NCBI GenBank assembly: GCA_038087875.1
Contig: CM075990.1
Location: forward strand, 5,768,001 to 5,832,000
Source: Malacoraja senta
Taxonomy: Eukaryota
Reading direction: 5' to 3'
Length of the DNA: 64,000 nt
Below the pieces are notes generated by a model, which was not told where the DNA came from, made no database searches, and saw only the letters and a list, made by a program, of their open reading frames with translations. Shown here piece after piece: positions 5,306 to 62,409 of the stretch (the first letter of the stretch is position 1; each line of letters starts with the position of its first letter). Position numbers and translations under genes: made by a program.

Positions 5306-5965
5306 CTACCTTTATAACATTGCGCCCAGAACTGAACACAATATTCTAAATATGACCTCACCAACGTCTTGCATAACTGCAATATGACCTTCCAACATCA
5401 ACACTTGCAAGAAGACCTAGTATTAAAAGCTATTATGGGGCCAGAAATGGAAGTAGTGTGGTTAATAGTTTATTGGGCATAGGGCCAAGGCAACAGAAAG
5501 TGGGCATGTGGGAAAACTTGTTGGTAATAACTCCAAGGGAAAGTGAAAGATGCTTGAGAAAGATGTACCCAGAAACCTCACTTTCTTTAAAAAAAAATCT
5601 ATAGAGCACAAAGGATAGAATGTCCTTAAGTCACCACAGGTTGTGTGAATATTAAATACATTATTGTACATTTGTACTCCCTGCTATCCTCTTAGATTGT
5701 GAATTTAATAACGTTCCTCTAAGCACAGTTAAGAAGCAGCCAATCATAACATTATCCATTTGCTATTTAAATTGTAGAAAACCATATAAACTGCCAAAAT
5801 AGTCCATCAATCTACTCTGCTGTAGTGAAAAATGTATGCCAAGTTTTAGAACTTACTAGACCAAGTGGGAACTGTTGGGTCCCATCCTCCAAGGCGCATC
5901 ACAGGGGAGGACTGGTCCCCGAACGCATACACCACCTGCATTCCAGGCCTAGTTCCAGACCGAGG

Positions 5966-6095
5966 GACTGAAGAAGGATTTTGATCCAATAGGTCACCTA
6001 TCCATGTTTTCCAGAGATGTAGCCTGAGCCACTGAATTACTCCAGTGCTTATGTCCATTTGTATATTAACCAGCATCTGCAATTCTTTGTTTCTA
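5966..6095 (+). mobile_element. Degenerate Penelope-derived short repeat (hammerhead-bearing family)
   Basis: ctgaagaaggattttgatcc...ccagagatgtagcctg..ccactgaattactccag...ccagcatctgca, homologous to 24659-24755. Confidence 0.6.
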
Positions 6096-6719
6096 CTAAT
6101 ACAGTGATAATCCCTTACTCGGTTAGAGTGGACAATCGACAATAATGGACACCATTTCCACCCACTTCTTCATCCGTTATAATGAGGGTTTACCATAGTT
6201 TACATACTGAAAATATGCCTGAAAACTAAACATATATTTGTTTAGTGCTATCAATGCAGTCAGATATCAAGAATGGAAAGTTGCTGTATGCAATTTTGTT
6301 GATTTTGATTATTAAAAAAGAAAGATTCATAGTCTTATTCCTTGCTGAAACGCTTAGTTAATGAGTATTATGAATTATAGCCTATATAAAATAATATTGC
6401 TGACTTTCAATGAATGCCATGCAAAGGAAAAACAATTTGTTTGATTAACTGTGCCCGTATTGATCGTGTAAGACAAAAGACTGAGTGCAATAAACTAAAA
6501 AAAATCTATTAATGGGTAAAACAATCAGTGTTCAGTATTCAAGAAGCAGCTTAAATCAATGGTGCACAGTTGTTTGCTGCAGGCAGGGTAAGATTAACAT
6601 TTCATATCATGAGGCATTCTCGTATTGTATTTTCAAAAATATCATCTGTTCAAATAATCTGGCCCAAAAATTTATCCCAAAATCAGAGCTGGTGTAGCAT
6701 TGTACATAAAGTATGAAAA

Positions 6720-11275: not shown

Positions 11276-11935
11276 AAAAAAGTCCAATCTTCTCCCTCTT
11301 TATTTCATGGTAATGAAAAACAAAATCTAGCTATTCAAAGAGAATAATCATAAGATGCTCTTAAACTTTGTAGTTTACAGTGAATTTGGCATTGAACATG
11401 GTTAATTTACCACAATACTTTGATCACTTAATATTAGAATTAGTAGCCTCCAAACAAAACATTTGTTAAATGCTGATTCATAAAACAAACCACAATACCA
11501 ATCTGGGAACCTATCAGGATGTTTTAATATCAATAACCCACTTGCATTTACTGGAAATGTATGTCATTTACCAGGACCTTGCATAAAATGATGAGAATTT
11601 AATAATTTACATGTCAATTTATTTTAACATATAACTTCAATAATGTATTCCACCCTTCCTTCATGCGACTTACAGGTTATAACCATGCAGACATGTAAAC
11701 AAATAACATAGAGCAGTATAGTGCAGAAACAGGCCCTTCTGCTAACAATGTCCATGCCGAACATACTTCCAAGTTAAATTGCTGAGTATGATTTGTGGAT
11801 GTTGCAGCATCATCAACCACATCAGATAAATGGACGAAGATATCGCTCAGTCAAGCTCATGGTTGTGTCAGAGGTTCTGGGATAGATTCATGCAATAATG
11901 TAATTATATTACGAGTGTTTAAGGAATTTAGAGAA

Positions 11936-12139
11936 TGTAGATTGGCTATTTCATACTAGCGAATTATAGTGTTTGTTAGTAGTGACTCCACTTACTATGT
12001 ACTTCATATTATCAAGAGCTTGCTTACGCTAGTTAGAATAAATAGCAGCTCGGAGATGTGATGACTGCAGATCCTTGCTGTATGTAGATTTAATAAATAT
12101 GTGTTGTATCGTGATGTGTGTTCGAGTCGACTCATTACA
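11936..12139 (+). repeat. 5' LTR
   Basis: tgtagattggc...ctcattaca; contains AATAAA. Eight mismatches against the 3' LTR by manual count. Confidence 0.95.
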
Positions 12140-12152
12140 TGGTGTCAGAGTG
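12140..12152 (+). promoter_or_regulatory. Primer binding site (tRNA-Leu-like)
   Basis: TGGTGTCAGAGTG directly follows the LTR CA and resembles the TGGTGTCAG(A/G)AGTG tRNA-Leu PBS. Confidence 0.75.
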
Positions 12153-13517
12153 AATCTTGCCCACTCCGCTCATGTTTATCATGGTTTTTCTTCTGATTAT
12201 TTTGTGTGTTTTTTATCTCAATCATGGCAAACTCGTGTTGCCGTCCTTTGATTCTGACATTGCTGAACGCTGGCGTCTTTTCGAGCGTGATTACACTCAT
12301 TATGCTCGCATCGTTCATCGAAATGACCCCCCCCCCCAAGATGTGTGTCCCTGTACTGCTTAATTTGGCGGGACCTGTAGCAATGAATCATGCTGACTAC
12401 TTCACTTTTTCTCCTGCTGTTTTGGAAGATTACGGTCAGGTCAGAGTGCCTGCTGAAACAATCGATGACCCTGCGGTTTTGATCAGAAAGTTCAGAGCTG
12501 TGACCTGCCCTCTAACTACATTATTGAAAGGACCAAGTTCTATGCTCGTTTACAGCAGGTCGACGAACCAATTGAACGATTTATCAACGACTTGAAGCAG
12601 ATGGCTGCACGCTATCGCTTTCGTGATTTACGGGATGAATTCACCCGGGATAAGCATGTGGGAGGAATGCTTGACAGCAAGCTACGAGGTGAGCTCCTTT
12701 GCAACACTGAACAAGCAGAACATGCCTGTCGTATTTCTGAGATAATGTCTCCCCATACTGACTCTGTGTCCTTCAGTCAACGTTCGCAGCATAGTGTTAA
12801 TCTTACAGACCTCTCCCCTTGCAACCCCCGCACGGGGTCTGCAGTTCGTTGTCAAAATTGCAACTATTTCCATGCTACGGGTCATCAATTCTGTGTTGCC
12901 TATGGGAAAACCTGTAATTTCTGCAAGAAATTAAACCACTTTGCTCGGTGCTGCCATTCCCGTGTGACTCCTGTAGCTTCAAGGACGAGCCTGCACCTGT
13001 TTCAACATGAGTTTACTGATAATGCCTGACTCGCAATCCCTTGCACCGCTCTCAGAGAGTACAGATACCAGTTCTGCCATCCACTCTCTCCTCCCTTCGT
13101 CTAACATGACCCTGAGGTAACCATGTTTGTGAATAACAGGCCTTTGATCGCAAAGATTGATACTGGTGCCAAATGCAACATCATCTCATTAAGAGAGTTT
13201 TAAAAAATCCGTAATGCTGAACATATTGATAAGGCCTCCACAACGCTTCGGGCTTATGGAGGAGAAGTACTACACCCACTTGGACAAGTTGATTTAAAGT
13301 GCACCATCGACAGACCCATACCGTACTGTTTTATATTGTTAAGGGAGATTCAGAGACTTTGCTCGGTATCAATGCATGCCTGATTTAGGCCTGATCAATC
13401 TAGGCCTGATTTACTTTGGCGGACCCTAAACTGTCTCGCTGACGGGCCTACACAACAGCTACTCTCTCAATATAAAGAACTGTTTAACGATGAGCTTGGT
13501 AAGTTGCCTATCAAATA

Positions 13518-13851
13518 ATGATGATAATGATGGATTGGATTTATATAGCGCCTTTCTAATACTCAAGGCGCTTTACATCGCATAATTCATTCACTCCTCA
13601 GTCACACTCGGTGGTGGTAAGCTACTTCTGTAGCCACAGCTGCCCTGGGGCAGACTGACGGAAGCGTGGCTGCTAATTTGCGCCTACGGCCCCTCCGACC
13701 ACCACCAATCACTCACACACATTCACACACATTCACACACACATTCACACGCAGGCAAAGGTGGGTGAAGTGTCTTGCCCAAGGACACAACGACAGTATG
13801 CACTCCAAGCGGGATTCGAACCGGCTACCTTCCGGTTGCCAGCCGAACAGC
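13518..13851 (-). mobile_element. tRNA-derived SINE resembling teleost AFC (CORE-type) SINEs, nested in Gypsy pol
   Basis: Minus strand: ggaaggtagccggttcgaatccc (B box), gtcgttgtgtccttgggcaagacacttcaccc, ggtggtcggaggggcc...gtcagtctgccccagggcagctgtggctaca, and L2-type tail tgtaaagcgccttgag..aaggcgctatataaatcc. Splits pol LPIKY|HIAVD with AATA duplicated. Confidence 0.8.
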
Positions 13852-16300
13852 AATACCACATTGCTGTTGATCACAAAGTTATTCCTGTGGTCAGAGCGCC
13901 ACATCGTGTTCCGTATGCCATGTGCGACCGAATACACACTGAACTCAAGCTCATAGTGTCCATGGGTGTTATTGCTGAAGTTACAGAACCGTCTGACTGG
14001 GTTTCCACCATGGTCGTTGCAACAAAGAAAAACAAGGAGGAGATCCGTATCTGCATAAACCCCAGAGATCTTAACACTGCCATCAAACGCCCGCATTACC
14101 CAATGCGAACGACAGAAGAAGTTGCTGCCCAGATAGGCAACGCAGCAGTATTCTCAGTTCTGGATGCCAAAAGCTCGTTTTGGCAGATTCCACTGCACCC
14201 AGACTCGTCCAATCTCACTATGTTCGGCACCCCCTTTGGCCGATACAAATTTCTAAGAATGCCCTTTGGCATCAATTCCGCCAGCGAAGTTTTCCAGCGC
14301 ACTATGGAACAATTGTTTGCAGAGTACCCATGCGCTATCAATGTTGATGATATTCTCGTCTACGGACGCGATCTGGCTGAACATGACGCCAATCTGAAGA
14401 AAGTACTTGACCGTGCCATAGACATTTATCTCAAACTCAATCCCCTGAAGTGCAGGTTTCGAGTTCCTGAGGTTACTTACTTCGGTATGTGTTCACAAGT
14501 GATGGCCTCAAACCAGACCCGTCGAAAACTTCAGCTATCAACGAAATGTCTGTTCCTGCTGACATCGTGAGCTTACAAAGGTTCCTCGGAATGGTCAACT
14601 ACCTGGGTAAATTTATTCCCAACCTCAGCGACATATCTGCCCTCCCTACGAGAACTGACACACAAGGGCGCGGCATGGTCCTGGTACCCGCAGCACCAAA
14701 CAGCTTTTGACACACTCAAATTGCAGCTGGCTAGCGCACCTACTCTCGCCTACTTTGCTTTGGAATTACCAGTAACGCTCACCTGCGATGCGTCCCAGTA
14801 CGGGCTAGGCGCAGTGTGCCTACATACCACTGCCGATGGCATTTTCAAGCCCGTTTCATACGCCTCCTGTACGCTGACTGACACTGAACAGTGTTAGGCC
14901 CAGATTGAAAAGGAACTGCTCACAGTGGTTTTCGCCTGCACTAAATTCAAGGACTTTATCTTTGGAAAGTCTGTGACTATCGAGACTGACCACCAGCCGC
15001 TGGTCACAATTTTGAACAAACCCATCCACGCTGCCCCAGCACGACTACAGCGAATGATGATGCAACTACAGAGATTTGATTTCAACATTGTCTACAAGAA
15101 AGGCAAAGTTGTGCACATAGCAGACACGCTATCTAGAGCCCCGCGTAAAACTAACGAACAACAGCTCTCCGAACAGGACCAATTCTCAGTAATGAAGGTT
15201 TCGTTTGTGCCAACTGACTGTTTGAGCAGCCTAGCAGAGCACACGGCTGCTAATGAGATCTTACAATTGCTGTCTGCAGTCATCCGGCGCGGCTGGCCGG
15301 ATAAGCAACACAACACCCCGCTCGAGATATGCCCATACTTCCTGGTTTGCGATGAACTAGTATTACAGGACAGAATTATTGTCAAGGGCCACAAGGCAGT
15401 GGTCCCAGCAGCCCTCTGGGACAAATACTTTGACGACACCCACAGGGGCCACCCTGGCGTGGAGGCAACCCTCCAAAGGGCGCAAAGCATGTTTTACTGG
15501 CCAAGAATGACCAAATACATACGTTAAAAAACCGAAGTTTGCGCCGTCTGCAAAAGCCTGACACCACATCAGCAAAAGCAGCCTCTACTGCCGCACCCAG
15601 TACCCCCTCTCCCGTGGTCCACGTTAGCCACCGACATCTTTGAATGGCATGGGAAACACTATCTGGTCCTTGTAGACTCTTACTCTGGCTGGTTCGAAAT
15701 CGACTTACTTCAAACCACTACTTCTGAAGCAGTAATCAAAAAGCTGCAGCGCCACCTCTCCGTGCACGGCTCCGCTGCACATATCCAGTCCGACAACGGC
15801 GGACAGTTCACCAGCCAAACTTTTAAAATCTTTGCACAATGATGGGACTTTCAACATATTACCAGCAGCCCCGAATTCCCACAGTCCAAGGGACCCGCCG
15901 AACGCGCGGTCCGGAGTGCAAAACAACTCATGGAGCGGTCATACCTTGCCAAATCAGACGTGTACCTGGACTTGCTCAACCTAAGGAATATTGCGCGGGA
16001 TCCCATACTGGGTTCTCTAGCCCAACGAGTGATGTCTCACCAAACCCATGCTCCTCTGCCCACAAGTTCGTTCCCCAACTGCAGTTCAGAAGCAACTACA
16101 ATCCAAATGTGAGACGCAGAAATGCTTCTTCGACGTCCAGCAAGTCACTTAAACCTCTCGCTCGTGGACAAGTGGTCCGTCTCCAGACAAACAAGGGCTA
16201 AGCACGTCTGGGCCACATCTACGGCCCTGTCAAGGAGCCGCGCTCTTATATGGTCGAAGCGGAGGGTGCCATTTACAGACGCAACCGTCAATATAATCCT

Positions 16301-16575
16301 TTAAGACCGAGATGAGGAAAAACTTTTTCACACAGAGAGTGGTGAATCTCTGGAACTCTCTGCCACAGAGGGTAGTTGACGCCAGTTCATTGGCTATATT
16401 TAAGAGGGAGTTAGATGTGGCCCTTGTGGCTAAAGGGATCAGGGGGTATGGAGAGAAGGCAGGTACGGGATACTGAGTTGGATGATCAGCCATGATCATA
16501 TTGAATGGCGGTGCAGGCTCGAAGGGCCGAATGGCCTACTCCTGCACCTATTTTCTATGTATCTATGTATCTATG
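16301..16575 (+). mobile_element. CR1 3' fragment nested in the Gypsy integrase C-terminal region
   Basis: gagatgaggaaaaactttttcacacagagagtggtg...cctgcacctattttctatgt plus a (ATCTATGT)n tail. Imperfect TSD TATA(A)TCCTT; removing it restores RRNRQYILPMKE. Confidence 0.9.
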
Positions 16576-16917
16576 TATATCCTTCCAATGAAGGAACAGA
16601 GTCCTGCGATTCCGTATCCTGATGTCTCACGTTTCGTATACCCTCCCACAGTTGGTTCCGCTGCAGTCTCCCCGCGGCGTTTGCTGTCTAGCTCGCCTAT
16701 CTCGTCACCCTCCCTGCCTGTTGGGCCGCCGGTCGTTTCCCCATTTCCCTCCCTGGTTTCTTCTCCAATGAAAGGAGGTGAGGCGGACTCGTACCGCACA
16801 CGGGCAGGAAGGGTTTGCAGGCCACCCGTTAGATATGGCGATTTTGTGTAATTACGCAAATGTATCATTAACATTCCACCTATATTGCTTAGCCACCGAT
16901 GCTTCTTTTGTTTCTAC

Positions 16918-16926
16918 AAGGAAGGA
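16918..16926 (+). promoter_or_regulatory. Polypurine tract
   Basis: aaggaagga immediately precedes the 3' LTR. Confidence 0.7.
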
Positions 16927-17130
16927 TGTAGATTGGCTATTTCACACTAGCCAATTATAGTGTTTGTTAGTAGTGACTCCACCTACTATGTACTTCATAT
17001 TATCAAGAGCTTGCTTACGCTAGTTAGAATGAATAGCAGCTCGAAGATGTGATGACTGCAGATCCTTGCTCTATGTAGATTGAATAAATATGTGTTGTAT
17101 CGTGATGTGTGTTCGAGTGGACTCATTACA
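16927..17130 (+). repeat. 3' LTR
   Basis: Direct repeat of 11936-12139, followed by the TSD GAGAA. Confidence 0.95.
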
Positions 17131-18770: not shown

Positions 18771-19105
18771 GATTCTGAGGAAGGGTCCTGATTTGAAATG
18801 TTGTCTGTTCATTTCCCTCCACAAATAATGCTCCTCCCACTGAGTTCCTCCAGTAGTTTGCATTTTGCTCTTCTCACAGCTGCAGATCCCGTTTATTGTG
18901 TATGAGTACAAAAAAACAATGTGCTTGGTTTTGCCCCATTCTTGCCTCTTTTTACCAGCTTTCATCACTCTACTCCATCAGTCTGAAGAAGGGTTCCGAC
19001 CTGAAAAGCTGTGTGTCCATTTCCCGGCGCAAGTTGCCTGACCCACTAAGTTTCTCCAACACTTTGTTTTATACTCAAGATTTCAGCTTCTCTAGTCTCT
19101 TGCGT
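18771..19105 (+). mobile_element. Two tandem degenerate Penelope pLTR-like units with hammerhead-like cores
   Basis: ctgaggaagggtcctgatttgaaat (18774) and gtctgaagaagggttccgacctgaaa (18981). Each is followed by a c.cactgagtt.ctcca motif. Confidence 0.6.
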
Positions 19106-19459
19106 CGCATCCATAATAGTCAGTTGCTTTTGCTTAATATTTGAGCAGAGGGACATATTTTAAATTTCCTAAGTATGCAGGAGATCAGATGAAAAATGGT
19201 GCTTATGTTAATAGCGAGAAGGTCAGATGAGGCTACAGAACGATATTGATCAACTGGTAAGCTGAGTTGATAGATGGATCAAGTAGCAGAAAAATATACA
19301 TTTACATTAGCTTTGCATAAAAGGTACAGCACAGAAACAGGACGTTCAGCCCAAAGATACTTTGGTTCAGCCTAAATGACCCATACCAGAGTTCATGCAC
19401 CACATGAGCCTCCGCATAATCCTCAAATCATGTTATATTTATTTAGTTACCTCAATGCC

Positions 19460-20300: not shown

Positions 20301-22544
20301 GAACATAAATGTAGTTGTCAACTCCCACGACTTTTCACATGCACAATCAAAACTAAGTCTAGTCTTTGTCAAGTTGTAATTGCACCTACTTCCTAGTGTG
20401 ATTTTATAGTACTCGCCTGAGCAGTAACACAGAATTGTTCTGTGTTATTTTTAACTGTGCGCTTCTTTACAGTTTGGATTTAAGAATGCAATTTGCATTA
20501 TTGGAAATGGCTAATATTGGATAGATCTAATCTATCTAATCTAAAAGCTACCATTTGTGTAGTATAAACATGACTTGCCATTTATCAATGACAATGTGAA
20601 ACATGCCTTGCTGTAAGTTTAGATGGAGTGCTTAATTATCTGATGAGTTGTGAATGGATTGAACACTCGGCAATCATCTGTCAATACAAATTCCTGATAT
20701 AATAGAGGGAAGGTCGTAGCTGAATGCTGAACATGCTACTTATAGCAGTAATTCCCTGAGGCGGTGTCTATTTCTAAAAAACTACAGTATTTGTGCTTGG
20801 TGTGACCCCAACCAGTGGAATTTTCCACTTGATTCCCACTATTTTTTATTGAGGCTCCCCATTGTTCCTAAAATGCTGCAATTATCTCAAGGGCAGTAAC
20901 TCTCTAATTGTCGCCACAATTAAGTTGTTTTGTCCATGTCAACATTTTTGACCAAGGCAACAATGAGAACAAGCTGGTCATTTTGAAACCCAAATTGAGT
21001 ATTACTGAACAAGCTATTTTGACAAGTTAATGAAGAAGATTAACCATCGTTTTGGTTGACTTTTATCAAATATGTTGCTGAGGTTGAAGAGAACAGACCT
21101 ATCCAATTTCATTCTAATTGTACATTTTAGTGGTAGCCTCGTACAACTGAGTGGCTTGCCAAGCATTTTGGACAGCAGTCAAGAATTAAGCAGGTTAGGT
21201 GACTTCATGACAGATTTGGGAGAAATGGGAGATTTCATTCTCTGTAAAAGACATAAGTGAGAGTGCTGACCAGGCTAATTTCACCTTCTAAAAATAGGTC
21301 TGTAGCACTGTAAATCATGACTAAATCAATTACTTTTGAAATGCGATGAGTATTTCTTTCATGCTGTGGATTTCAAGATCCTCTAGGTGGAAAAAATGCT
21401 TGCAAATCTTCCGTCTGATCCTACCAGATATTTTAAATGTCTGTCCAATGGCATTTGACCCTTGTAGGTGAAAAAGCCCTTCCCTTTTACTTTGTTTAGT
21501 CCTCTCATTCATTCGTCCAAGCAAGTTGCCCTCAACTTCTTTTCCAAACAAAACAACTCTGACTTATTTAGTCTTTCTCAATCTTGGCATCATTCCCATC
21601 AATTTATTCTGCATCCTAACTGTTGTAATAGTATCTTTCCTCTATTGGAACCAGAGCTATACAGTATTCTAGCTGTGAATTTACTCTTGTGAAAGTGTCC
21701 TTTCTTTGATGTAAAGGTCAGAATGTCTTCTCCGTTAGCACATTACGAGGATAACTGCTTTTAATGTCTCTGTAGGAAAAAATGTGCTAGTCATCTAATG
21801 GGCTAACCTATGCAGTCTGGATGATTGAACGTGATTCTGCATGTAGTGAAATTAAAATCATCTGTCCTGCGTGTTTATCTGACCATATTAATATTTTAAA
21901 TAAGCAGCTGGGGCCATTTAATTGGTCTCTGAAGAAAGCTTTTAGCTGGATTCCCAGTATAGCGATGCCTCTGACTCGCCATCAAATTTGAGGCAGGGAA
22001 TGTGGGTTCCTATTAAATACCAAAAAGAAAGAAAACACTGGAATTGCTCAACAAGTCAAGTGGCATCTGTGAAGATGATTAACATTCTAGGCCATGAGGT
22101 TTCATCAGAAACAGGCAAATTAGGACACAAGCAAATTTTAAATTAGAAAGAAGGTTGAGGGGTAGGGGTAAGAAAGGGAATGCAATGGTGTCACCAAGAG
22201 AGACTTTTACAAATGGCGGTACACCTTGCAGAGAGAAGGCAATGAAAGCTTATTGATTGCATTTAATTTATGTGGAGGAAATGATTGAGGATGGAAGGAG
22301 AAAAAAAGAACAATGCTGGAATTGTGAGAAACCGAGCATGACAGTTGCTGGAAATTTGAAATAAAAATATCCAGCAGGACAGGCAGCAGCTGCGGAGAGG
22401 GAAGAAGTGTTATAGACCATTCATCAGATGTAGCAATATACTTGTCAGAGGAAGAATCCAAACATGTATGAGAAGAGATTGGGTTAACCAAGTCTGTATC
22501 CACAAAGAAGGAGAGAAGGTTTAAACTCATAAATTCACTTTATA

Positions 22545-23295: not shown

Positions 23296-23532
23296 TTTAA
23301 AAGAATATAATTGATGTCACATGTACCAAGGTATAGTGAAATGTTTGTATACCTTCTGCTGGACTGGATTAGGAAGAACAAGGAATTACCGGAGTGGAAC
23401 AAGTAATTGATTGTGTTAGAATTTTTTGGTGGGAATCTGGTCTGTGTGATGAACTTGGCTACATTCACAACTCTGCAATTTCTTGCGTTGGGCAGAGCTA
23501 TTCATAAATCAACCCATGATTCACCCATACAG

Positions 23533-23628
23533 GTACACAAAAATGCTGGAGAAACTCAGCGGGTGCAGCAGCATCTATGGAGCGAAGGAAATAGGCAACG
23601 TTTCGGGCCGAAACCCTTCTTCAGACTC
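23533..23628 (-). mobile_element. 96-bp Penelope-derived insert with 13-bp TSD
   Basis: Flanked by TTCACCCATACAG at 23520-23532 and 23629-23641. Homologous to the 3' part of the Penelope fragment at 24659-24753. Confidence 0.85.
23594..23627 (-). ncRNA. Minimal hammerhead ribozyme motif
   Basis: Minus strand agt-CTGAAGA-a-gggt(ttcg)gccc-GAAAC-GTT-gcc: CUGANGA core, stem II, GAAA, palindromic AACGTT stem III and NUH=GUU. Activity untested. Confidence 0.7.
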
Positions 23629-24332
23629 TTCACCCATACAGTATGCTTTCTATGTGTATCATATTGGTTTGGGAATATAAAACAGGAATCTGATGTTGAG
23701 ATAAATAATAAAGCTTCATTGAATGGCCCAGCAGTCTCAAAGGTCGAAAAGGTCTACTTTTATTTTAGTTTCAAGACCAGGTGAAATGCTGGTGTCAGAA
23801 GAAGCAATCCTTGGAATTTGTACTGGATAGATCTAATTGCACAGGTAGTTCATGTGGGCAAGTATTTCTTAAATACAAAATATAAATAGCTTGGTATTGG
23901 ATTTTTTAATGCATTTAATCTAAAATCATATTTAATTTTGAATTGGTACGAGGTAAGCATCTGGCGATAGCCAAGTTTTATAATCTGAATCTGAAAGCCT
24001 CAATTGGATTATTGTGAATCTGGAATTCTGTTCACTGAACAAATAAAAGATGTAGAATAAACAAAATGCTATGTTATCAATGTTGGTTAATATTACACAA
24101 ATGTTGCCCTTTTTGGTGGACCAGTTATCTTTCTATTTTGAAGTAGAGTTCTGTTGAGGTATAAAGTTAAAACGTGAACCAAAGAGAGCAGATCAAAATT
24201 AAGGAGCACTATTTTTTCCATCCCTGACCCAGCCATTCTGGCTGTAATAGTGTAACTCCAGTGGCGCAGTGGTAGAGTAGCTGCCTTACAGTACCAGAGA
24301 CCCGGGTTTGATCCTGACTATGGCTACTGTCT

Positions 24333-24753
24333 AAGAAGGAACTGCAGATGGTGGAAAATCGAAGTTAGACAAAATCTCCCGGTGGCTCAGCACTTCAACT
24401 CCCCCTCCCATTCCGAATCCGACCTTTCTGTCCTGGGCCTCCTCCATGGCCAGAGTGAGCGCCACCGGAAAGTGGAGGAGCAGCACCTCATATACCGCTT
24501 GGGCAGTCTGCACCCTAGTGGCATAAACATTGACTTCTCCAATTTCCGGTAGCCCTTGCTGTCTCCTCCCCTTCTCAGCTCTCCCTCAGCCCTCAGGCCC
24601 CTCCTCTTCCTTTCTCCTTTCTTCTCCCCATCTCCCCGCCCCCCCCCCACCCTACATCAGTCTGAAGAAGGGTTTTGGCCCGAAAAATTGCCTATTTCCT
24701 TCGCTCCATAGATGCTGCTGCACCCGCTGAGTTTCTCCAGCACTTTTGTCTAC
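24333..24753 (+). mobile_element. Penelope-like element 3' fragment with inverted 5' piece
   Basis: 24376-24552 encodes LPVAQHFNSPSHSESDLSVLGLLHGQSERHRKVEEQHLIYRLGSLHPSGINIDFSNFR* (GIY-YIG C-terminal half). A pLTR-like region with a hammerhead motif follows. 24333-24374 is an inverted pLTR end. TSD ctatgg(c/g)tactgtct at 24318-24332 and 24754-24768. Confidence 0.85.
24659..24692 (+). ncRNA. Hammerhead ribozyme motif, stem III decayed
   Basis: agt-CTGAAGA-a-gggt(tttg)gccc-GAAA-aattgcc, downstream of the GIY-YIG stop codon. Confidence 0.55.
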
Positions 24754-24840
24754 CTATGGGTACTGTCTGTATGGAATTTGTGTGTTCACTTGGTTTGGTA
24801 TAATTATGAATTGTCCCTAGTGTGTTGACTGAACTTTAGT

Positions 24841-25917: not shown

Positions 25918-26080
25918 AAAAGGTGTAATATGGGCAAATAATTTGCACACAGAATGAACTCAATGGTTTAATTGCTGTTCCAGTAATGTTGGTTGACTGA
26001 TAAATATAGGCCACTACCATGAGGCCTTTTGCATCCACATGAAATTTTACCTGCAAGATTACAAAACTTGCCTAAGTGTT

Positions 26081-26166
26081 CGATACAAAAGGCTGAAGTA
26101 ACTCAGCGGGTCAGACAGCATCTCTGGGGAAAAGGAATAGATGACGTTTTGGGTCGAGACCCTTCT
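26081..26166 (-). mobile_element. 86-bp Penelope-derived insert with 8-bp TSD
   Basis: TAAGTGTT at 26073-26080 and 26167-26174. Minus strand agaagggtctcgacccaaaacgtcatc is a truncated hammerhead core. Confidence 0.75.
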
Positions 26167-26513
26167 TAAGTGTTAAGTATTAACCTAATTTATGTGCTGA
26201 AGTTCCTTGGCTGGAGCATAACACACATGGTCATATATTATGTCAATAAGAAAAGTCAACTCAGGTTTATAGCAGTTAGCTTTTTGTGAATTTTATCGTA
26301 AATCTTATGGCAAACTATTACCTTGTAGGGATTTGGTTTCTGTGTAATGCAAATGGTTTCACAACTAATTTTGAGCCCAAATGATTTTTTTTCTCTTTTC
26401 CAATTATTTGACACTGACAATTAACTTTTTTGAAAGACAGAAATATTTGAGCTTCAATGATTAAACTCAAAGCCCAGCTTTCAATTCCATAAGTGCTAAG
26501 TTTAATATGAGCA

Positions 26514-29374
26514 TTAACAAAGTTAGAGCTGAAGGAACAGGAGGAACTGGGTGCACAAATCTCAATTAAGGAATTAGAAGATACAATAAACTCACTAAAA
26601 AATGGAAAAACACCAGGCCCTGATGGATTTACTAATGAATTTTATAAAAACTTTTATGAAAAAATAATACCAAGATTACAAAAAATGTACCAATACGCTT
26701 TTAAAAAACGAATACTACCTGATACATTAGCGGAATCAACGATTACATTAATACCTAAGAAAAATAAGGATTTAGAAGATCCTGGCTCATATAGAGCTAT
26801 AGCATTGTTAAACACAGATCAAAAAATATTAGCGAAAACATTAGCCAGAAGATTAAGTAAATACATTAGTAAATTAATAAACCCAGATCAGACAGGGTTT
26901 ATCCCTAAGAGATACTCTTCTAATAATATGAGACGTCTACTCAACATAATGCACTCACACAAATCTGAAGATCAAGAATTATCAATTATTTCGCTGGATG
27001 CTGAAAAAGCATTTGATCAAGTAGAATGGAATTATATGGATAAAGTATTACAAAAATTTCAACTGGGAGAGAATTTTATTTTATGGATTAAGTTACTATA
27101 TAACAAACCTACAGCTAGAATACTTACTAATAACATATTATCCTCGAAATTTCAACTATCAAGGGGAAATAGACAAGGATGCTCATTATCACCACAGCTG
27201 TTTGCTCTCATTATTGAACCGCTAGCAGAAAAAATTAGAATACACCCTGATATTCATGGATATAATACTAAAGACTCATATAATAAAATATCTTTATACG
27301 CGGATGATATATTATTGTATATCACAAAACCTCAAATCACTATACCAAATATATTAAATTTAATTGAAGACTTCGGATCTTTTTCTGGATATAGAATAAA
27401 TTGGAATAAAAGTGAAATTATGTCAATAAAACCGAAAGATTCAACACATCTTTTAAAATTCCCTTTTAAAATAGCTACAGAAAAATTTAAATATTTGGGA
27501 ATCGAAATTACCAGAGCATATCAAGGTATGCTCAGGGCAAATTTTGACCCCCTACTTAATAAACTGAATACATTAATTAAATTCTGGAAAACGCTTCCGA
27601 TGTCTTTAATAGGCCGAATAAACGCAATAAAAATGATCTTTTTACCACAAATTTTATACCTATTTCAATCAATTCCTATATACTTACCTAAGAAGTTTTT
27701 TAAAAAACTCGACTCAGATATCACTAATTTTATATGGGACTATAAATCACATAGAATACAAAAAACCCATCTGAATAAATCTAAAGTATTGGGGGGTCTA
27801 GCACTACCCAATTTTATGTATTATTATTGGTCAGTAAATATTAAAAACATGATTCAACTGATGGATAACTCCGCCCAGCAAGTAGACTGGATTGTAATGG
27901 AGAAAGAGGATTGCTCCTCTAGAAACATTGGAGCGATCCTCCTCTCTCCAATGAAATTGAATAACATAAACTATAATAAGAACCCAATTATTCATAGTAC
28001 AATCCGTATTTGGAAACAAATAAAACAAAATTTAAAATTAAGAAACTTATCACTTTTATTACCTATAGTCAATAACCCTTCGTTTAGTCCTTCTATTATA
28101 GATAAAGCTTATACACAATGGGATAGACTAGGAATTAAAACGCTTGGTGACTTGTATGAAACTGGAAAATTACTTTCATTTCAACAATTACAAATAAAAT
28201 ATAAACTCGGAAATAATCAATATTTTAAATACTTTCAAATATGCGACTATTTGAAAAAATATATAAAAGATCATCATAATAACCCAGCAGATGTACTGGA
28301 CGAGGCAATGCAGACAAAAGCGGAATCAGCAAACTTAATATCATATTTGTACAATATTATCTTAAATGTACAAATACCATCTACGGAGGGTATCAGAAGA
28401 GACTGGGAACAAGAGTTAGCCATTAAAATTTCAAAGGAAAGTTGGAATGAATACTTATTAAAAGTACATAAATGCTCGATTAATGTAAGACACACTTTAA
28501 TACAATTTAAAATTTTACATAGATTATATTATTCGAAAACTAAAATTCATAAAATTTTCCCAAACGTATCATCTATTTGTGATAAATGTCAATCCCAAGA
28601 AGCAACTATAGCGCACTCATTTGTCTTCTGTACAAAAATTCAAAAATTTTGGAATGAAATTTTTGAAATCTTTACAAAGTTATTTAAAACAAGACTGATA
28701 CCCAAAGCAGAATGGATTATCTTCGGAATAACGGAAGATGATCCAGAACTAAATGTGTTTCAAAAGAAATTAATGGATTATGGGTTAATAACTGGAAAAA
28801 AGCTAATTCTAAAATTTTGGAAGAAGGCTCCAATACCAACTATAAATATGTGGATTTCAAATATGTTTGAAACACTACACCTTGAAGAGATAAGACTCCT
28901 CCTAGCAGGTAAACCAGATCACTTCCACCTGACGTGGTCTGCATTTATAGAATTATTACAAACATAGGGTGCAAAAGTACTTAAAAAAAATAAAAAATTG
29001 AGGTCGGGTAAGGGGGGATGATAGTTGAAGAGTTGGTATGTCCTATTTACGTGATGCTCAAAAAAAAAACATTTGTTTTTCTTTTTTTCTCTCTCTCTTT
29101 TCTTTTCTTAGGGCCTATTTCTTAACTCCTTTTTTTTTTTTGTCTTTAATTTCGCTTTCATAGGGTCCTCGTCCTTTTTTTTTTTTTTTGTTTGTTGTTA
29201 CATTTTCTACACTTTTCTACACTTGCACTTTTTCCTTCACTTTCTTCTCTCTTTCAATCTTTTCTTTCTTTAGCGTAAAAAAAAAAAAAAATAAAGGGAG
29301 TACATTAATTGTAAGAAGATATAAATGACGAGTATTAATGTATGTGGCTGTGATGTAATGTACTTCTAATAAAT

Positions 29375-29426
<52 letters not shown>
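26514..29426 (+). mobile_element. 5'-truncated L1-clade LINE with poly(A) tail
   Basis: Reading frame open from ~26514 (LTKLELKEQEELGAQ..GKTPGPDGF) to the stop at 28967. T-rich 3' UTR, AATAAA near 29368-29377, long poly(A) to 29426. Confidence 0.95.
26685..28967 (+). CDS. L1 ORF2p C-terminal part (RT and cysteine-rich domain), truncated
   Basis: SLDAEKAFD, RGNRQGCSLSP, LYADD and CDKCQSQEATIAHSFVFC motifs. No stop in 760 aa; homologous to ORF2 at 49285-53076. Confidence 0.9.
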   Translation: MYQYAFKKRILPDTLAESTITLIPKKNKDLEDPGSYRAIALLNTDQKILAKTLARRLSKYISKLINPDQTGFIPKRYSSNNMRRLLNIMHSHKSEDQELSIISLDAEKAFDQVEWNYMDKVLQKFQLGENFILWIKLLYNKPTARILTNNILSSKFQLSRGNRQGCSLSPQLFALIIEPLAEKIRIHPDIHGYNTKDSYNKISLYADDILLYITKPQITIPNILNLIEDFGSFSGYRINWNKSEIMSIKPKDSTHLLKFPFKIATEKFKYLGIEITRAYQGMLRANFDPLLNKLNTLIKFWKTLPMSLIGRINAIKMIFLPQILYLFQSIPIYLPKKFFKKLDSDITNFIWDYKSHRIQKTHLNKSKVLGGLALPNFMYYYWSVNIKNMIQLMDNSAQQVDWIVMEKEDCSSRNIGAILLSPMKLNNINYNKNPIIHSTIRIWKQIKQNLKLRNLSLLLPIVNNPSFSPSIIDKAYTQWDRLGIKTLGDLYETGKLLSFQQLQIKYKLGNNQYFKYFQICDYLKKYIKDHHNNPADVLDEAMQTKAESANLISYLYNIILNVQIPSTEGIRRDWEQELAIKISKESWNEYLLKVHKCSINVRHTLIQFKILHRLYYSKTKIHKIFPNVSSICDKCQSQEATIAHSFVFCTKIQKFWNEIFEIFTKLFKTRLIPKAEWIIFGITEDDPELNVFQKKLMDYGLITGKKLILKFWKKAPIPTINMWISNMFETLHLEEIRLLLAGKPDHFHLTWSAFIELLQT

Positions 29427-29427
<1 letters not shown>

Positions 29428-29893
29428 ATGATTCTAATGAATTCTTTAGGAAATATGTTTATTTTTTGTACATGCCACCTAGACTTGAGGATTCTGTTGG
29501 TCTCGGCCTGTTACAGAAATCATAAGAATACATTTTGTTTGGACCATCTTTGCAGGTGAACATTGTTTAGAGAGTTAAATAAACCAAATATTCCAGTGAC
29601 ATTAAAAATAAATACTAACCTAAATTATTAATGGATTGGTGCTGCAGACTCCAATGCTCAATTCTCTGTGGCATGTTCTGATTGTTTACGTTTCAAGTAG
29701 GGTGCATAGTCAGTGGGCTAGTCAAAACTCTGCCAGACCTGCAGAGTTTGTGATTGGTTGACTAATCCTTTGGAGGTTGATTCATTCACGGTTTATTGCG
29801 TATGAAAGTCATGGTTTACTGTTCACCACATTGTGCTTAAACATATTCACCGTGTTGAAGTCTATTCTGTGGAACAATATAATCTATGGTCAT

Positions 29894-29988
29894 AGGTAGA
29901 CACAATGCTGGAGTAACTCAGCGGGACAGGCAGCATCTCTGGAGAGAAGGAATGGGTGACATTTCGGGTCGAGACCCTTCTTCAGACT
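29894..29988 (-). mobile_element. ~95-bp Penelope-derived insert with hammerhead motif
   Basis: Minus strand agtCTGAAGAagggtctcgacccGAAAtgtcacc...gagttactccagcattgtgtctacct. Flanked by (at)ctatggtc repeats at 29882-29891, 29987-29994 and 29997-30006. Confidence 0.8.
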
Positions 29989-32039
29989 ATGGTCTGATCT
30001 ATGGTCTATTATAGTCTATTAAAGAAAATGGGGGTGAGGGGTCGTTCCCTCCAACAAGCAATCAAGTCATTATCAAATTCTGCAGCAAAAAGCAGCAATT
30101 GGATTTGGATCAAAAGGAGAGACGAAGAGACATTTGCAAGATGAAGACAGGAGGGTATGGAATTGAGGGGGGTGTAACTGGGACGCCAGATATCACCGTT
30201 TAGCCTTCTGGAGATGTTGTGGGCGTGTCAATGAAACGTCAAAGAAGGAGGGTGCCCACCTGATGCCCCGATGACGTACCTACCCTATCTTTCACCACTC
30301 CAATCCCACTGCAAATAGCAAGAGTTCCGACTTATTACAGGGATTGAAACATCAAGTCCTATTAGCTCTACTATGGTCTTTATAGTCTTTAATACTGATT
30401 TGCTTTTGAGAGTATTGTTCAATTTCAAATTAAGTTTGCTTATGTATATCTTCATAATATATTCTTACCAGAAAGTTGTTTAAAAGCCCTGCTGAATTTG
30501 AGCACATAATTTAATCATATTCTGATGGCTTAAAAACATTCAAGATTTGCATAAATATCTGAAAGGGAATGGACAAGGCATGGTTTTAATTGAATAGTGA
30601 GACTAATGTTCCAGATGGCCACCCTTGCCATATTATTCCATGATTCTGTCCAATTTATTTCTTAATCCTGGACATTTTACGTAATTTACTGGCAATTAGT
30701 GTGGTAGTTTATTGCAAAATGTATTTTTGGTTCTGTATTCTTGGAGGGTATCTGCCTCATGTTTTACTAATTTACCATATGAATGGTTCACATTTCTATC
30801 TGTGCGAGTCAATGGCTGAGGTCGAATGGAGTTAACATTTTAAAAGGGCATGCTATGGCGAAAGATTGGATCTCAAGTTTATATTGGTTCTACTAAATAT
30901 TCGGATCTCAAGCACTGTTTATGGGCCCTGCTGTTCAGCATGGGTAACTATCATGGAGAAAATGGAAAGATTGCATGCAAGCAAAATTGGAAAATAACAG
31001 CATTAGAATGAGAGCAGAGAAGTTCACATATGTTCCTGATAAACACAAAAACAGTGGTCATTGTTATAGGATGGGGGGAGAAGTGCTGGCGGTATGCTAT
31101 TAGTTATTGGGTAAAGAAAGTGTATGACTGCTAACACTGGCACATATTCTGGTGCTTGCACAATCCAATTGTTTGGTGTCATGTGAGCACTGTTCTAAGT
31201 GGAAATTTAGAATAAACAGCTGCTGCAACGGTTGTCTGAAACAATTTATTCTGAAATTATTAGAAATGCCATTTTTATGAAGACAATAGTCAATGGTATA
31301 AGGAATGTATTTTCATAACACTAAAGGTGTCCTATCACAGTGAAAATCCATTTAATTTCTAGTCACCTCTGGCTGCTTTGTGTGAAACATACATTCTCCT
31401 AAAATCAGCTCAGTAAATTTTTCAGTGCATTGATGGAAGCCGAATCCTTTTGGATAGCGTGCTAGATTAGATTTGTCAGTCATTGATATGCACAGTGCTC
31501 CAAAGCAGTTATTCAGAACGAAACATAGTTCAAAAGTATTAGAAAAAAAAATGCAAAGGGCAAAACAGAACAGTTCAAATCAGATAAGATGTGATGCAAT
31601 GCAATCTGAAAACCATCCAGCTATTGCAGCATGTGAAATTCATGGATTTACTTGTAGTGGCATGAATTCAGTATTTTTTCAACAGAATAGTAAAATCCAC
31701 ACTGTGAAAAGTGGCAGTATATAATTTTAAAGTTTTTCAATAAAAAACAAATCTGATATTGCTCCGACCACATTCATTAAGAGTTTTTAAAACGGCATCT
31801 TTCACATTTTAGTACTGAACTTTACATTAATGATAGAATCATTACAAAGTTTCCAGATGTTTATGTTATGGATATATTTGCTTGGATGTCCTTTAAATGC
31901 TTATAATAACTTACAGTGAGTATCAGAATATGAACGTTTTTCGTGATCAAGCTTGTTATTGATTTAATGGACTGTTATAATCTGATTTTTTTTTGTGTGA
32001 GACCATAGAATTTACTGAACCTATTTTAGCAGAATGAGT

Positions 32040-34995: not shown

Positions 34996-36313
34996 TGAAC
35001 AAATCCTTGTGTATTCTTCCATGAGGTGAAACCATTCTGTTGATTCTTTGTAAGCTGTGACAATCTTTTTGTTTAGTGTTTAAAGCTTCATTTGAACACA
35101 GTGTTTTGCACGCAACTAATGAGCAGTTTTCTTCTAATCTATTTTGGCTAAATGTGAACTACATATTTAATGGAAGCAATCTGTAGCCCACCTCTGAGAG
35201 TTTCAGATTCTTTCTGCACATTTTGCAAGATTTTCTTCTCGCAGGCAACTGTTGTCTAACATGTGTACAGTTTATGTCTCTGTGCAGTTATATTGCAGGT
35301 TGATATGAGCCTGTTTGGTGTTACAATCTTTGTTAACGTTGAATTATTTTTGGCACTGCAATTTTTCCATTACATATCAAACATTAATTCAGCCCTCTTT
35401 CTTCAACAAAGCAGCATTTTTCTGTGCATCACTTGTTATTTCACTATTTTCCATCTATGTTTAGCTGCTTTATCACCACCATGAGCATTTTGCTTCATTT
35501 ATTTCACCAGTTCTTGCACTCTTTTTCATGGTTCTTTTATTCCCGTGGTCTTTGCTGACCATGCTGCCTCTGTGTTGCTCTTGTTTCTCTCCAGCTTGTA
35601 GTGTGCTCTTCACCCTTCTCTGGCTTTGGTGCTTGTGGTACCACTTTGTCATTTCCGGTACACAATCCAACATTGTCAACAACGTTGTTATCTCCTGTAA
35701 ACCTTTTATTACTCCTTTGATCGAATAATAGTGCTCACCTGCTTGGAACACATCGTGGCACTGAGGTGGAATGGATGTAACCATTGGGGTCTCTGCAGTG
35801 TACATAGGTCATAAAATCAACAAGTTTACCGAAGGGATATATCGTGTGACTAATTTGCGATAAAAATCAGACGCAGATTACTGATATTCATAGATACGGG
35901 CTTTGTCTTTGATACTTATTAATATCATTAAATAACCACTACTAAGCAGGTAAATTTTAGTCTCTTAAATTTTGTCATCTAAATTAAATTATGAGAATGA
36001 GTAAGAATGTATAGAGAGAAATCTCCTTTTCACAGTGTATTTATGGAACAGCTGCTTGTGTCAAATTATTCAGTCTCAATTGACAACTATTAATAGTAAG
36101 ATTAAATGAGAACTTACCAGTTTGAAGTTTGATCTTTATTTTATGAGGAGTTACGATGAGGGATTACGTGAAGAGCCCGTCAGCAAGCATGCGCGTCAAC
36201 CTTCAAAGCAGCGGTGTGGAGTCACAGACAGCAAACATTGACCTGAGAATAATAAGATTCGAGAAACTAGAACTACCAGCTAAGTTTTATGAGGAGGGGT
36301 TGGGAGCGGAGGG

Positions 36314-36426
36314 CACGTAATCCCTCATCATAACTCCTCATAAAATAAAGATCAAACTTCAAACTGGTAAGTTCTCATTTAATCTTACTATTTTACTTCG
36401 GAGTCACGTGAGTGACTACGTGAAGA
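36314..36426. repeat. DIRS internal complementary region (ICR)
   Basis: 36314-36392 is the reverse complement of 36092-36170 (1 mismatch). 36391-36426 is the reverse complement of 40897-40932 (1 mismatch). Confidence 0.92.
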
Positions 36427-36598
36427 TTTTAAAGCTCTGTGACTTCATGCCGTGGAACGAGTCCATGCGTCACACACTGTATAGTTGACCAATGGAGAGT
36501 GGACAAAAAAAGACTGTTCAGTCATGACATAAATGAAACAAGTTGACAATTTAATGTACAAAGGAAACAACAATAGTCACCTCTCTACCCGAGAGGGA

Positions 36599-37582
36599 CT
36601 ATAAACCCAAACTTAAAACTGAGTTCGCAAACACGCTCGGTCTGGCTAAGGGTTTGTTATAGAACGTCTGAAACGTGCGTTCTGAGGACCATCCTGCGGC
36701 TGATAAAATCTGGTCTAGCGGGACATCCATGACCCTCGCTGCGGACGTAGCTGCAGCCCTGGTGGAATGAGATTTAAACATTTCAGTATCAACCCCAGCA
36801 TCTGCCAGAACCTGTTTCAGCCACCTGGAAATGGTCTGAGCTGAAACCCTCTTATGCGGTTTCTTGAGGCTGACCAATAATGCTAACTCAGACCCCCTAA
36901 GCCCCTTGGTGATCTTGATGTATTGCTGGAGGTGAGCAACTACACATAATTTGGGATCCAAAGGGTATGCCATGAACTGTAACTTAAGACCCGAAGTATC
37001 TGGTCTACTCTGTTTAATAGCGTCGTACACAAAAAAGGTGATACCACTGGCAGAGGTGAGCATCCTGTCCAGACGTAGCTTCTGCAATGACTGGACCCTT
37101 TGAGCTGACACTAAAGCCATGAGCATGGCCACCTTGTGCGTGAGCCGGAGTAGAGACAGGGATGTAACTGGAGACCATGAGCGAAGTAGAGTTAGGACCA
37201 CCCCTACATACCAAATTTCAGTGTAGCTGGGCCTAGGAGGGTTCGAATTGAAGACTCCCCTCATGAACCTCGATACTAAAGGGTGAGACCCCACAGACTG
37301 GTGTTCTGAACTCGGCAGCAAGTATAACGACAGCGCACTTCTGGCACAATTTAGAGAACTATAGCTTAATTTCTCATCGAAATGCAATTTCGAGAGGAAC
37401 TCCAAAACATCCGTAATGTGCGCTGCGTAATACGAGATATCGGACTGCGCACTGAACACTTTCCATTTCCTTATGTATGAGGCATACTGTTTTTGGGTAC
37501 TGTTTCTCCAGTCCGCAGTTAGCACATCCACCGTACGATCAGCTAGTCCAAGTCCGAGGAAAGGTCTTCTCAAAACCTGCAA
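36599..37582 (-). CDS. DIRS tyrosine recombinase (uninterrupted, no 5' ATG)
   Basis: 327 aa with the catalytic set R (SAQRVQ), K (IKQSRP), HxxR (SHSTRA), W (AAGWSS) and Y (TFQTFY). The N-terminal SAM-like part reads STQKQYASYIRKW. The listed start codon is TTG. Confidence 0.9.
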   Translation of the reverse strand: MQVLRRPFLGLGLADRTVDVLTADWRNSTQKQYASYIRKWKVFSAQSDISYYAAHITDVLEFLSKLHFDEKLSYSSLNCARSALSLYLLPSSEHQSVGSHPLVSRFMRGVFNSNPPRPSYTEIWYVGVVLTLLRSWSPVTSLSLLRLTHKVAMLMALVSAQRVQSLQKLRLDRMLTSASGITFFVYDAIKQSRPDTSGLKLQFMAYPLDPKLCVVAHLQQYIKITKGLRGSELALLVSLKKPHKRVSAQTISRWLKQVLADAGVDTEMFKSHSTRAAATSAARVMDVPLDQILSAAGWSSERTFQTFYNKPLARPSVFANSVLSLGL

Positions 37583-40727: not shown

Positions 40728-40872
40728 CCTAGTCCGTTCTTGAAGCTGTAACAAGAACGGAAGACAAACGACCGCAGACTAAGTTCAAGAACTTACCTGG
40801 AGGTCTTTTAAAACTTACCGCTGGTGGAGCGAAGCGCCAACCAGCCAGTCAGAGCGCCATGCTTAGACGTAA

Positions 40873-40932
40873 TGACGCGCATGCGTGCTGACGGGCTCTT
40901 CACGTAGTCAATCACGTGACTCCGAAGTAAAA
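40873..40932 (-). promoter_or_regulatory. DIRS left ITR / putative promoter
   Basis: CpG-rich terminus with E-box TCACGTGAC (40912-40920) and NRF1-like GCGCATGCG (40877-40885). Promoter function is inferred. Confidence 0.5.
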
Positions 40933-54066: not shown

Positions 54067-54294
54067 AGCAGTTCGTCTCGTGTTATCAGGTTTTCCTCGT
54101 TTGAGCACGTAGTGTCCTTGAATTACATAGCACAATGTTCCAGCGAAGATAATAATGTCTAGCCACGTCTCACTAAGAATCTGTTGCTTGAAGTCAAATA
54201 AAAAATAAAAAATCAGTGTTCAGTTAATTCACTTTCCTTGTGATACTCTTGTTGGAAGAATAAGCAAGTTTGTTTGTTCCTGTCGTCTTGGTTT

Positions 54295-61022: not shown

Positions 61023-61959
61023 TATATGCCAGCTGAAATCTCAATTTTAAATTTCTGATGCAGAACATAATTCTCCAAAAACCAACCATTAGGAAACGTC
61101 GGTGAGCCATTTGCTGCAATTGAACAATAGGCACTTGAACGTCCTGGAGGAGCAGTGAGAAAATTGCGGTAGGTGTAGCAGGGTAATCCTTTTTGAATAT
61201 CCTTACTGAGAAACTCTCCATTGTGGAAAAACTAACTGCGGGTTCAGTCGTGGGTTCAGTCACTGGTATATGGCCTGTTTAAGTGGTGTGGTGCATACCA
61301 GACAGGAAGCTCAGTCTGGAATAGTCATCATCACAAATATAAATACCTACCTGCTGCTGAATGTCATGAATCTAAGTCATGCTTGTAGACAGAAACACCA
61401 GTTTTGGCTCACAGCTATACATCAATCTCCAACTGGAGTAGCTGTTCCAGATAGTTGTTCCTATTTAAAATAAGAAATGTATCTCCATCCTTAAAACAAA
61501 TTTACTTAAAATATTGAAAAGTAAAACTTGAGCTTTATATTGGTAAGAAAGCTAAATGCTGAAAAATTGTAACAGAAAGGCTGGAAATGTGCATGGATCT
61601 GAATTTGATTTAAACTTCTTTGTGCTATAAACTTCATCAGTGCCTGTTGTTCTGGCCAACTATTAACGACAACTAACATCACTGGAAAAGATTACAGTAA
61701 AACCCAGATAATCAGGTATCCAGTTGTTCAGAACACTCAACGGTTCAGCATATGGTTTGCTCATTAGTCCTTGTTATCCTTAGTCCTCCTCTCTACAGAT
61801 CCACATAATCTCATCTGTTCCTGAGAGTGTGAAACAGATGTGCAGCCATCGTTTGGATTGGGAAAACTCGGGTTCAAGAACATCGGTAGGTGTGTGGTTG
61901 GAGCTGGATTCCAATGAGCAATCTGGTATCTGGAGTGCACGTACATTTACCCTTCAGTC

Positions 61960-62180
61960 AACACAAGGTGCTGGAAGAACCCAAAGGGCCAGGCAGCATC
62001 TGTGGAGGAAATGGATAGGCAATGATTCAGATCGTAACCCTTCTTCAGACCCTCCTTAAGTCTAACGAAGTGTCCCAACCCAAAATATTGCTTGTGCATT
62101 CCCCCCAGGGTGCTGCCTAACTTGCTGAGTTCCTTTGTGTTTTGTCTTTGAGCAAAGATTTGCAGTTGCTTGTGCCTGCA
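61960..62180. mobile_element. Inverted pair of degenerate Penelope pLTR-derived units
   Basis: - unit ...gcagcatctgtggagg..atggataggc...acccttcttcagac (to 62050), then + unit gtctaacgaagtgtcccaacccaaaa...gctgcct.acttgctgagttcc. Confidence 0.55.
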
Positions 62181-62409
62181 TTTTCAGTTTGTTTGACAAA
62201 CTGAAATTAGCAAGCTGAAACTCACCTGGTTCCTTTTTGAACTCACTAGTGCTCAGTTTTCCACTCCCTTCAAACTCACTAGGTTCACTGGAAAATTTAC
62301 AATAGTTCTATTTTTTAAAAAAAAGGAAAAGTGCTTTGGGGGTGCATGAATAACATCCTATAGTATGGACACTCTGCTAGCCTGGCACCATCAACATTCT
62401 GAAGGAGCT

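Follow-up and report, generated by a model that had tools for sequence, protein, structure and literature searches.

Short hammerhead-bearing inserts in a skate genome and their probable origin from a Penelope-like element

Short inserts and related copies in the window

The window analysed here, a 64,000-nt stretch of the Malacoraja senta genome, contains nine copies of a short sequence built around a minimal hammerhead motif (Table 1). Each of the nine is recovered by a profile of the other eight with E of 1.9e-9 or better, and the best match in a reversed-window control has E of 5.1. Three of the copies are short inserts on the minus strand, of which the insert at 23533-23628 is referred to as the focal one. 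Another, 24659+, is a long copy of a Penelope-like element (PLE) that includes the end of an open reading frame (ORF). Positions within element copies are numbered relative to C3 of the CUGA box.

Table 1. PLE-related features of the window and their coordinates
Feature	Position	Strand	Remarks
Old copy with tail	5963..6098	+	Core broken; no duplication found
Old copy	18771..18890	+	Start at about -4; 3' end approximate
Old copy with pyrimidine-rich upstream pLTR and TCAGTC	18920..19109	+	Both ends approximate
Weak, very old relative	22027..22109	-	Profile E 0.015
Target duplication of focal insert, 3' copy	23520..23532	-	13 bp, exact
Focal short insert, 96 bp	23533..23628	-	G at 23628, then pLTR -3 to +91
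Complete minimal type I hammerhead core	23597..23624	-	Predicted cut after 23597
Target duplication of focal insert, 5' copy	23629..23641	-	13 bp, exact
Duplication flanking long copy	24318-24332 / 24754-24768		15 bp with 1 mismatch
Long 5'-truncated PLE copy, 421 bp	24333..24753	+	Within a tRNA-like SINE
Inverted PLE 'tail' at 5' junction of long copy	24333..24375	-	Opposite-strand joint 24358/24755 in public contigs
Last 58 codons and stop of PLE GIY-YIG endonuclease (P0001)	24376..24552	+	
Pyrimidine-rich upstream pLTR part	24553..24661	+	Ends in initiator-like TCAGTC; putative promoter
Hammerhead (helix III pair mutated) and downstream pLTR	24662..24753	+	95% identical to focal insert
Short insert, starts inside box 1, core broken	26081..26166	-	8-bp exact duplication, 26167-26174 / 26073-26080
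Short insert, starts at -3, CpG-type change in helix III	29894..29988	-	6-8-bp duplication, 29987-29994 / 29884-29891
Old copy, head-to-head with 62059..62183	61958..62053	-	Possible 9-bp duplication, 1 mismatch
Old copy with tail	62059..62183	+	

The first-pass annotation of this DNA had described three minus-strand inserts with target duplications of 13, 8 and 8-10 bp. The inserts and the first two lengths stand. Applying the same tight search to 1000 random positions, a duplication of at least 13 bp was reached at 0.2% of them and one of at least 8 bp at 0.7%. At the third insert the first two element bases fall within the 8-bp duplication, and the 10-bp match lies in a repetitive target and stops 9 nt short of the junction on its upstream side; for these reasons the length is more safely given as 6-8 bp. 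Together with the 15 bp at the long copy, the duplications thus vary in length, as they do for PLEs that carry an endonuclease (EN+). The 3' ends of the short inserts all lie at +88 to +93. The G at 23628 that begins the focal insert is absent from both the target and the matched long copy 24659+.

Among the decayed relatives proposed at the same time, those at 5966, 18774, 18981, 24659 and 62030 were recovered by the profile (as 5965+, 18772+, 18980+, 24659+ and 62051-), with an additional copy at 62059+. The relative at 22085 is weak, and 57637, which neither profile search of the window found, is rejected as a copy. Describing 24659 as merely decayed was a mistake, as it is the ORF-linked long form. 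The 5' ends of the five old copies were placed by composition, not by a duplication, and the possible 9-bp duplication at 61958..62053 is not significant (null 22%). A G at -4 occurs in 4 of 7 short copies (p = 0.03), a post hoc count that partly reflects an older start motif. The two old same-strand copies within 18771-19109 lie 208 bp apart and may be a partial tandem.

The hammerhead core

The complete core that had been reported for the focal copy was borne out. Its RNA has box 1, a 4-bp stem II, GAAA, CG, U, and U as H17, together with the palindromic 15.2/16.2 pair and a NUH site; stem I has 2 bp only. The focal copy is the only one of the nine with a complete core. The insert at 26081-26166, for example, lacks one because it starts inside box 1 and has AAAA in place of GAAA. 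The hammerhead pattern matches once in the window, compared with no match in 100 shuffled sequences. Stem I reaches about 4 bp in one old window copy. For stem II, 35 of 36 cells are paired and one double change is seen, which is not above shuffles (170/500). Core positions are more conserved than downstream ones (91/99 compared with 388/495, p = 0.001), a difference that is biased because the copies were anchored on the core.

The Rfam hammerhead models gave no match in the window or in the focal 201 bp, and this carries little weight because minimal motifs are defined by a descriptor. The unit RNAs fold no better than shuffled sequences (z from 0.04 to 0.44). In predicted folds the probability of stem II is at most 0.04 in four window unit RNAs, compared with 0.94-0.95 in the unit of a related family, G001, described below. 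The latter value led us to drop the notion that the core is always sequestered by the downstream pyrimidine run; the alternative helices of that notion also showed covariation not above shuffles. DNA pattern scans found no match in metagenome contigs, genome contigs or viral contigs, and scanning the viral contigs at the protein level yielded 10 candidates, of which none was confirmed.

Relationship to a Penelope-like element

The first-pass annotation suggested a PLE connection and overlooked two features at 24333-24552 that bear on it, the end of a GIY-YIG ORF and an inverted tail, both of which are present. The ORF end (24376-24552) matches the C-terminus of GIY-YIG proteins and lies upstream of the pLTR on the same strand, with the hammerhead core 110 nt past the stop codon. 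The same order of GIY-YIG ORF, pLTR and hammerhead is found in seven loci of other DNA (L001-L007). The 58-aa peptide (P0001) by itself has no Pfam hit. It shares 81% and 77% identity with the ends of two skate gene models, matches 353 cluster representatives at E 0.001, and aligns at 44% to the C-terminus of P0008, a protein with both reverse transcriptase (RT) and GIY-YIG domains. A zebra-shark model (P0005) ends in SLMKGLRPKR, where the insert has SLKKGFGPKR. A PLE-type RT is absent from the window and present in the homologues P0006-P0008 and in L001-L007. The closest homologues carry a C-x4-C-x2-C linker, a region that the window copy is too short to include; linkers of this type (CX2-5CxxC before GIY-YIG) are described for Neptune and Nematis (PMC8557442).

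The 5' junction of the long copy begins with the inverted tail (24333-24375), of the 30-40-bp kind known from PLEs, and inverted arrangements recur in the head-to-head pair at 62053/62059 and in joints of public contigs. Sister copies of the host SINE contain the duplicated site once. The ORF end, the linker of the homologues, the inverted tail and the 15-bp duplication together identify the inserts as pLTR ends from a PLE with an endonuclease. On this evidence from sequence, the short inserts very probably stem from a Penelope-like element, and the element is likely of the Neptune type.

Insertion ends in public contigs

Contigs of four public sequencing runs, none of them recorded as RNA, were placed on 24300-24800 (42,466, 73,797, 77,107 and 7,282 contigs). 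Contig depth was not taken as a measure of copy number. Coverage is deep over the ORF end as well as the hammerhead part. Loose ends at 24755 occur in all four runs (321, 544, 696 and 117 contigs). On the upstream side, the 24 loose-end rows listed of 1905 include piles with random flanks at 24660 (run X2, 105), 24659 (run X18, 30) and 24666 (3), and among the same rows runs X1 and X3 show no such pile. The consensus of the X2 pile ends in G, and that of the X18 pile in A, not G. Among the 15 joints listed of 175, five of eight inverted-tail joints land at 24656-24661, and three distinct joints into 24659 each contain one G. A joint at 24690, the first base past the predicted cut, is also among these (X2, depth 381). 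Between-letter rows were considered among the 12 listed of 266.

The boundary at 24659-24660 coincides with TCAGTC (24657-24662, with its A at 24659) in the long copy. This stretch can also be read as a splice acceptor, a pyrimidine tract and CAG before TCTG, in which case the inserts would derive from spliced RNA. Pyrimidine-rich runs ending in CAG precede the boundary in both long window copies (0.89 and 0.80; null 0.1% and 0.4%), and an intron of D. virilis Penelope is described as ending at helix I (PMC4209133). However, the flanks of the piles are unrelated (agreement 0.35-0.38) and reveal no common first exon, the piles lie at -3/-2 and not at -1, and the G001 family has a TATA box in place of the pyrimidine tract. 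We give splicing only a slim chance.

One further joint, which contains one G, links 24703 to 24659 and has a depth of 993 in X2 and 181 in X1. It could stem from a partial tandem present in many copies, or from a 46-nt hammerhead repeat at another place in the genome. As a possible tandem form it also bears on the suggestion, made in the first-pass annotation, that the inserts are a separate non-autonomous element of about 95 bp, similar to a SINE or retrozyme and amplified from its own masters by PLE proteins. Such an element would account for two fixed ends and a duplication at each insertion. An internal promoter is known for Penelope (PMC2377424), and non-autonomous PLE derivatives are described (PMC8557442; bioRxiv 10.64898/2026.07.22.740005). 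Yet the focal insert is 95% identical to the ORF-linked copy and only 81% and 76% identical to the other two short inserts, which speaks against a single short family; the comparison uses pairwise identities in a window with two long copies only. ORF-end sequence is abundant in the public runs, and the window has no tandem array of intact units of the kind that marks retrozymes. The inserted unit would also lack RNA that a PLE protein needs: the Anolis protein is reported to require RNA to +172, about 55 nt past RT starts at +111 to +118 (PMC11167929). A separate element is therefore disfavoured, and we consider it improbable.

A related family in other genome bins

A protein scan found seven Neptune-type loci (L001-L007) in two genome bins, evidently in animal DNA. 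Both bins, G001 and G002 (L001-L062), are prokaryote genome bins that contain animal PLE DNA; G002 has one copy only, and G001 must be heavily host-contaminated, since it holds over 50 hammerhead-bearing arms. The pLTR of L001-L007 consists of the stop codon, CCAAT, TATATAAA at -39, and a core with the same spacing as in the window. Evidence from G001 is evidence by analogy, because the family and the animal are different.

We collected 56 arms from G001 with a motif at +59 to +89, which makes the collection blind to the 5' end. Ten arms extend at least 390 nt, ten end between -389 and -15 (one of these at a locus edge), and 23 start at -14 to -1, compared with 10 in the upstream 375 nt. Five arms start at 0 to +10, none at +11 to +24, five at +25 to +33 and three further down. 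When head-to-head pairs are counted once, there are 18 events in -14 to -1 compared with 9 in the upstream 375 nt. A set anchored on the core agrees (26 of 56 arms at -14 to -1; two pairs there may be duplicates). The 3' ends fall into two groups, at +85 to +99 (24 of 56) and at +140 to +159 (28 of 56).

These starts also bear on ordinary 5' truncation as the origin of the boundary, with its edge sharpened by RT stalling at a C-rich tract and by the core-based way in which copies were found. In the window a C run does lie directly upstream of the edge, and the short unit served as query for finding the copies. The G001 family, however, has no poly-C run at its edge, and its 5'-blind set still clusters and is empty at +11 to +24. 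Truncation is thus largely refuted for G001 and, as an account of the inserts in general, very improbable. The earlier claim that simple random truncation does not explain the 5' boundary is supported by these 23 of 56 arms and by the contig breaks at 24659-24660, and contig ends and G001 arms alike favour its suggestion of a stereotyped product of PLE integration.

Within the cluster, 12 of the 18 events reach -14 to -7, mostly 29 to 32 nt past the TATA box (TATA+29 to +32). The remaining six start at -3 to -1 only, off the site predicted from TATA and at the 5' edge of the 3-bp stem I of that family. This smaller group fits a stem I boundary and speaks against the start-site origin proposed below. 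A PLE origin could be combined with a 5' edge set by a folded or protein-bound hammerhead, through 5' trimming of the RNA or resolution of the cDNA at the base of stem I. The X2 pile at -2, where stem I (2 bp in the window) starts, agrees with an edge of this kind. On the other hand, the 12 events lie beyond stem I, the extra G is left unexplained, and stem II is hardly formed in the predicted folds of the four window unit RNAs. We regard an edge set by stem I as unlikely.

Two of the 56 arms start at +28, where the predicted cut product would begin: L044 starts exactly there and has a target duplication, and L059 does so with a one-base ambiguity. The chance that two of five events fall on one named site of 48 is 0.004. 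These starts hint at occasional cleavage and could be a genomic trace of it in vivo, for which RNA data are described as giving no support to date, with no reads ending at the cut site (PMC11167929). Three further arms start at +32, within a small palindrome.

Several G001 loci (L024, L025, L030, L037, L039 and L045) are head-to-head palindromic mini-inserts centred at -10 to -8, often with one arm short and the other tailed. Four solo copies that begin at -3 (L017, L028, L029 and L054) share an upstream purine triplet that is absent from the long copies.

A possible route to the short inserts

These observations lead us to propose that the inserts are end pieces of the pLTR, made when RT primes about 92 nt into a capped mRNA that has not been cleaved and reverse-transcribes it up to the likely start site; we put the probability of this account at roughly 0.6. 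The PLE RT would prime at the first pLTR of the uncleaved mRNA and proceed to a transcription start just ahead of the hammerhead, and the resulting leader of about 95 nt would be integrated. Priming at the downstream pLTR of a read-through RNA may give the longer, randomly truncated copies. The 5' cluster would mark the transcription start site, the extra G could be a copy of the cap, and the core would be retained because the template RNA was uncut. A complete leader copy from the start site to the RT start resembles strong-stop cDNA. TCAGTC at 24657-24662 fits the initiator consensus.

The ORF-family membership, the target duplications, the fixed 3' end, the clustered 5' end and the retained core were observed in the present sequences, and internal initiation, a tail between two RT starts and the use of uncleaved RNA are carried over from another PLE. 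In the Anolis PLE, RT is reported to have two internal starting points past the hammerhead, with the tail located in between, and to use mainly uncleaved RNA as template (PMC11167929). By this analogy the fixed 3' end fits the published internal initiation. The short copies would be dead ends, since they should lack the RNA past the RT start that the Anolis protein needs.

Transcription start sites of PLEs have been placed within the pLTR (PMC2377424; PMC8557442), and full-length L1 insertions are marked by an extra, cap-derived G (PMC11702581). TCAGTC stands at the boundary in both long window copies. Several observations speak against a start-site and cap origin. The motif TCAGTC occurs 39 times in the window, the long copy 24659+ has no TATA box, the X18 consensus ends in A, the insert 29988- lacks the extra G, and so do two solo G001 starts at -7.

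More generally, it is conceivable, at somewhat less than even odds, that priming on capped mRNA at its first pLTR is routine for PLE RT and leads to integration of a leader of the strong-stop kind. The 5' ends of short copies would then record the transcription start, and a minor class that begins after NUH would record hammerhead cleavage in vivo.

Relation to known systems

The motif shares with the minimal pLTR hammerheads described for metazoan PLEs (PMC4209133) the CUGANGA box, an extra nucleotide before stem II, a G-C first pair, the palindromic 15.2/16.2 pair and the lack of a real helix III, as well as the occurrence mostly as solo copies from truncated PLEs. With 4 bp in stem II and 2 bp in stem I, it is shorter than the S. 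mansoni motifs described there. The Anolis Poseidon element PAc resembles the present system in its two fixed 3' ends past the hammerhead (here in G001), the intervening tail and the retained core; the present element, in contrast, is probably of the Neptune type, and the main text of PMC11167929 makes no mention of genomic copies that end at the transcription start.

For EN+ PLE insertions, a pLTR with TATA and Inr, inverted copies, a tail and 8-10-bp duplications are described, and the inverted tail, head-to-head pair, partial tandems and variable duplications seen here agree with that anatomy (PMC3846280; PMC8557442). Solo pLTRs without duplications are ascribed there to recombination or deletion, whereas the present short inserts appear to be direct insertion products, given their own duplications and fixed ends. 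Non-LTR retrozymes, as described in PMC7229834 and bioRxiv 10.64898/2026.07.22.740005, likewise have a type I hammerhead, a relation to PLEs, a small size and dispersed monomers; the present inserts differ in having no tandem array, a minimal and not a canonical motif, and a unit that is not delimited by cut sites at both ends.

Searches of the open-access PMC and bioRxiv literature turned up no description of genomic PLE copies that end at a start site or cut site. Published work already covers pLTR hammerheads, solo copies, tails and inversions; what is new here is modest, a testable twist on where short copies begin. Should the proposed route be correct, a histogram of breakpoints from any good assembly would map the start site of a PLE without bench work and would also give the frequency with which cleaved RNA serves as template. 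Many 'solo hammerheads' in these genomes would then be dead leader copies and not functional ribozymes or retrozymes. The question bears on the in vivo role of the minimal hammerhead and on the origin of short and inverted PLE inserts.

Other elements in the window

The window also contains an L1-type element at 49285-55290 (-) with two open frames, one of 1271 aa for endonuclease and RT and one of 331 aa upstream of it; a truncated copy of it, 77% identical, lies at 26511-29429 (+). A DIRS-like element (36092-40939) has RT and tyrosine recombinase frames and split repeats. An LTR retrotransposon at 11932-17130 has 208-bp repeats that are 96% identical and a broken coding region, and a transposon of the Tc1/Sleeping Beauty type at 59411-61025 has 217-bp inverted repeats.
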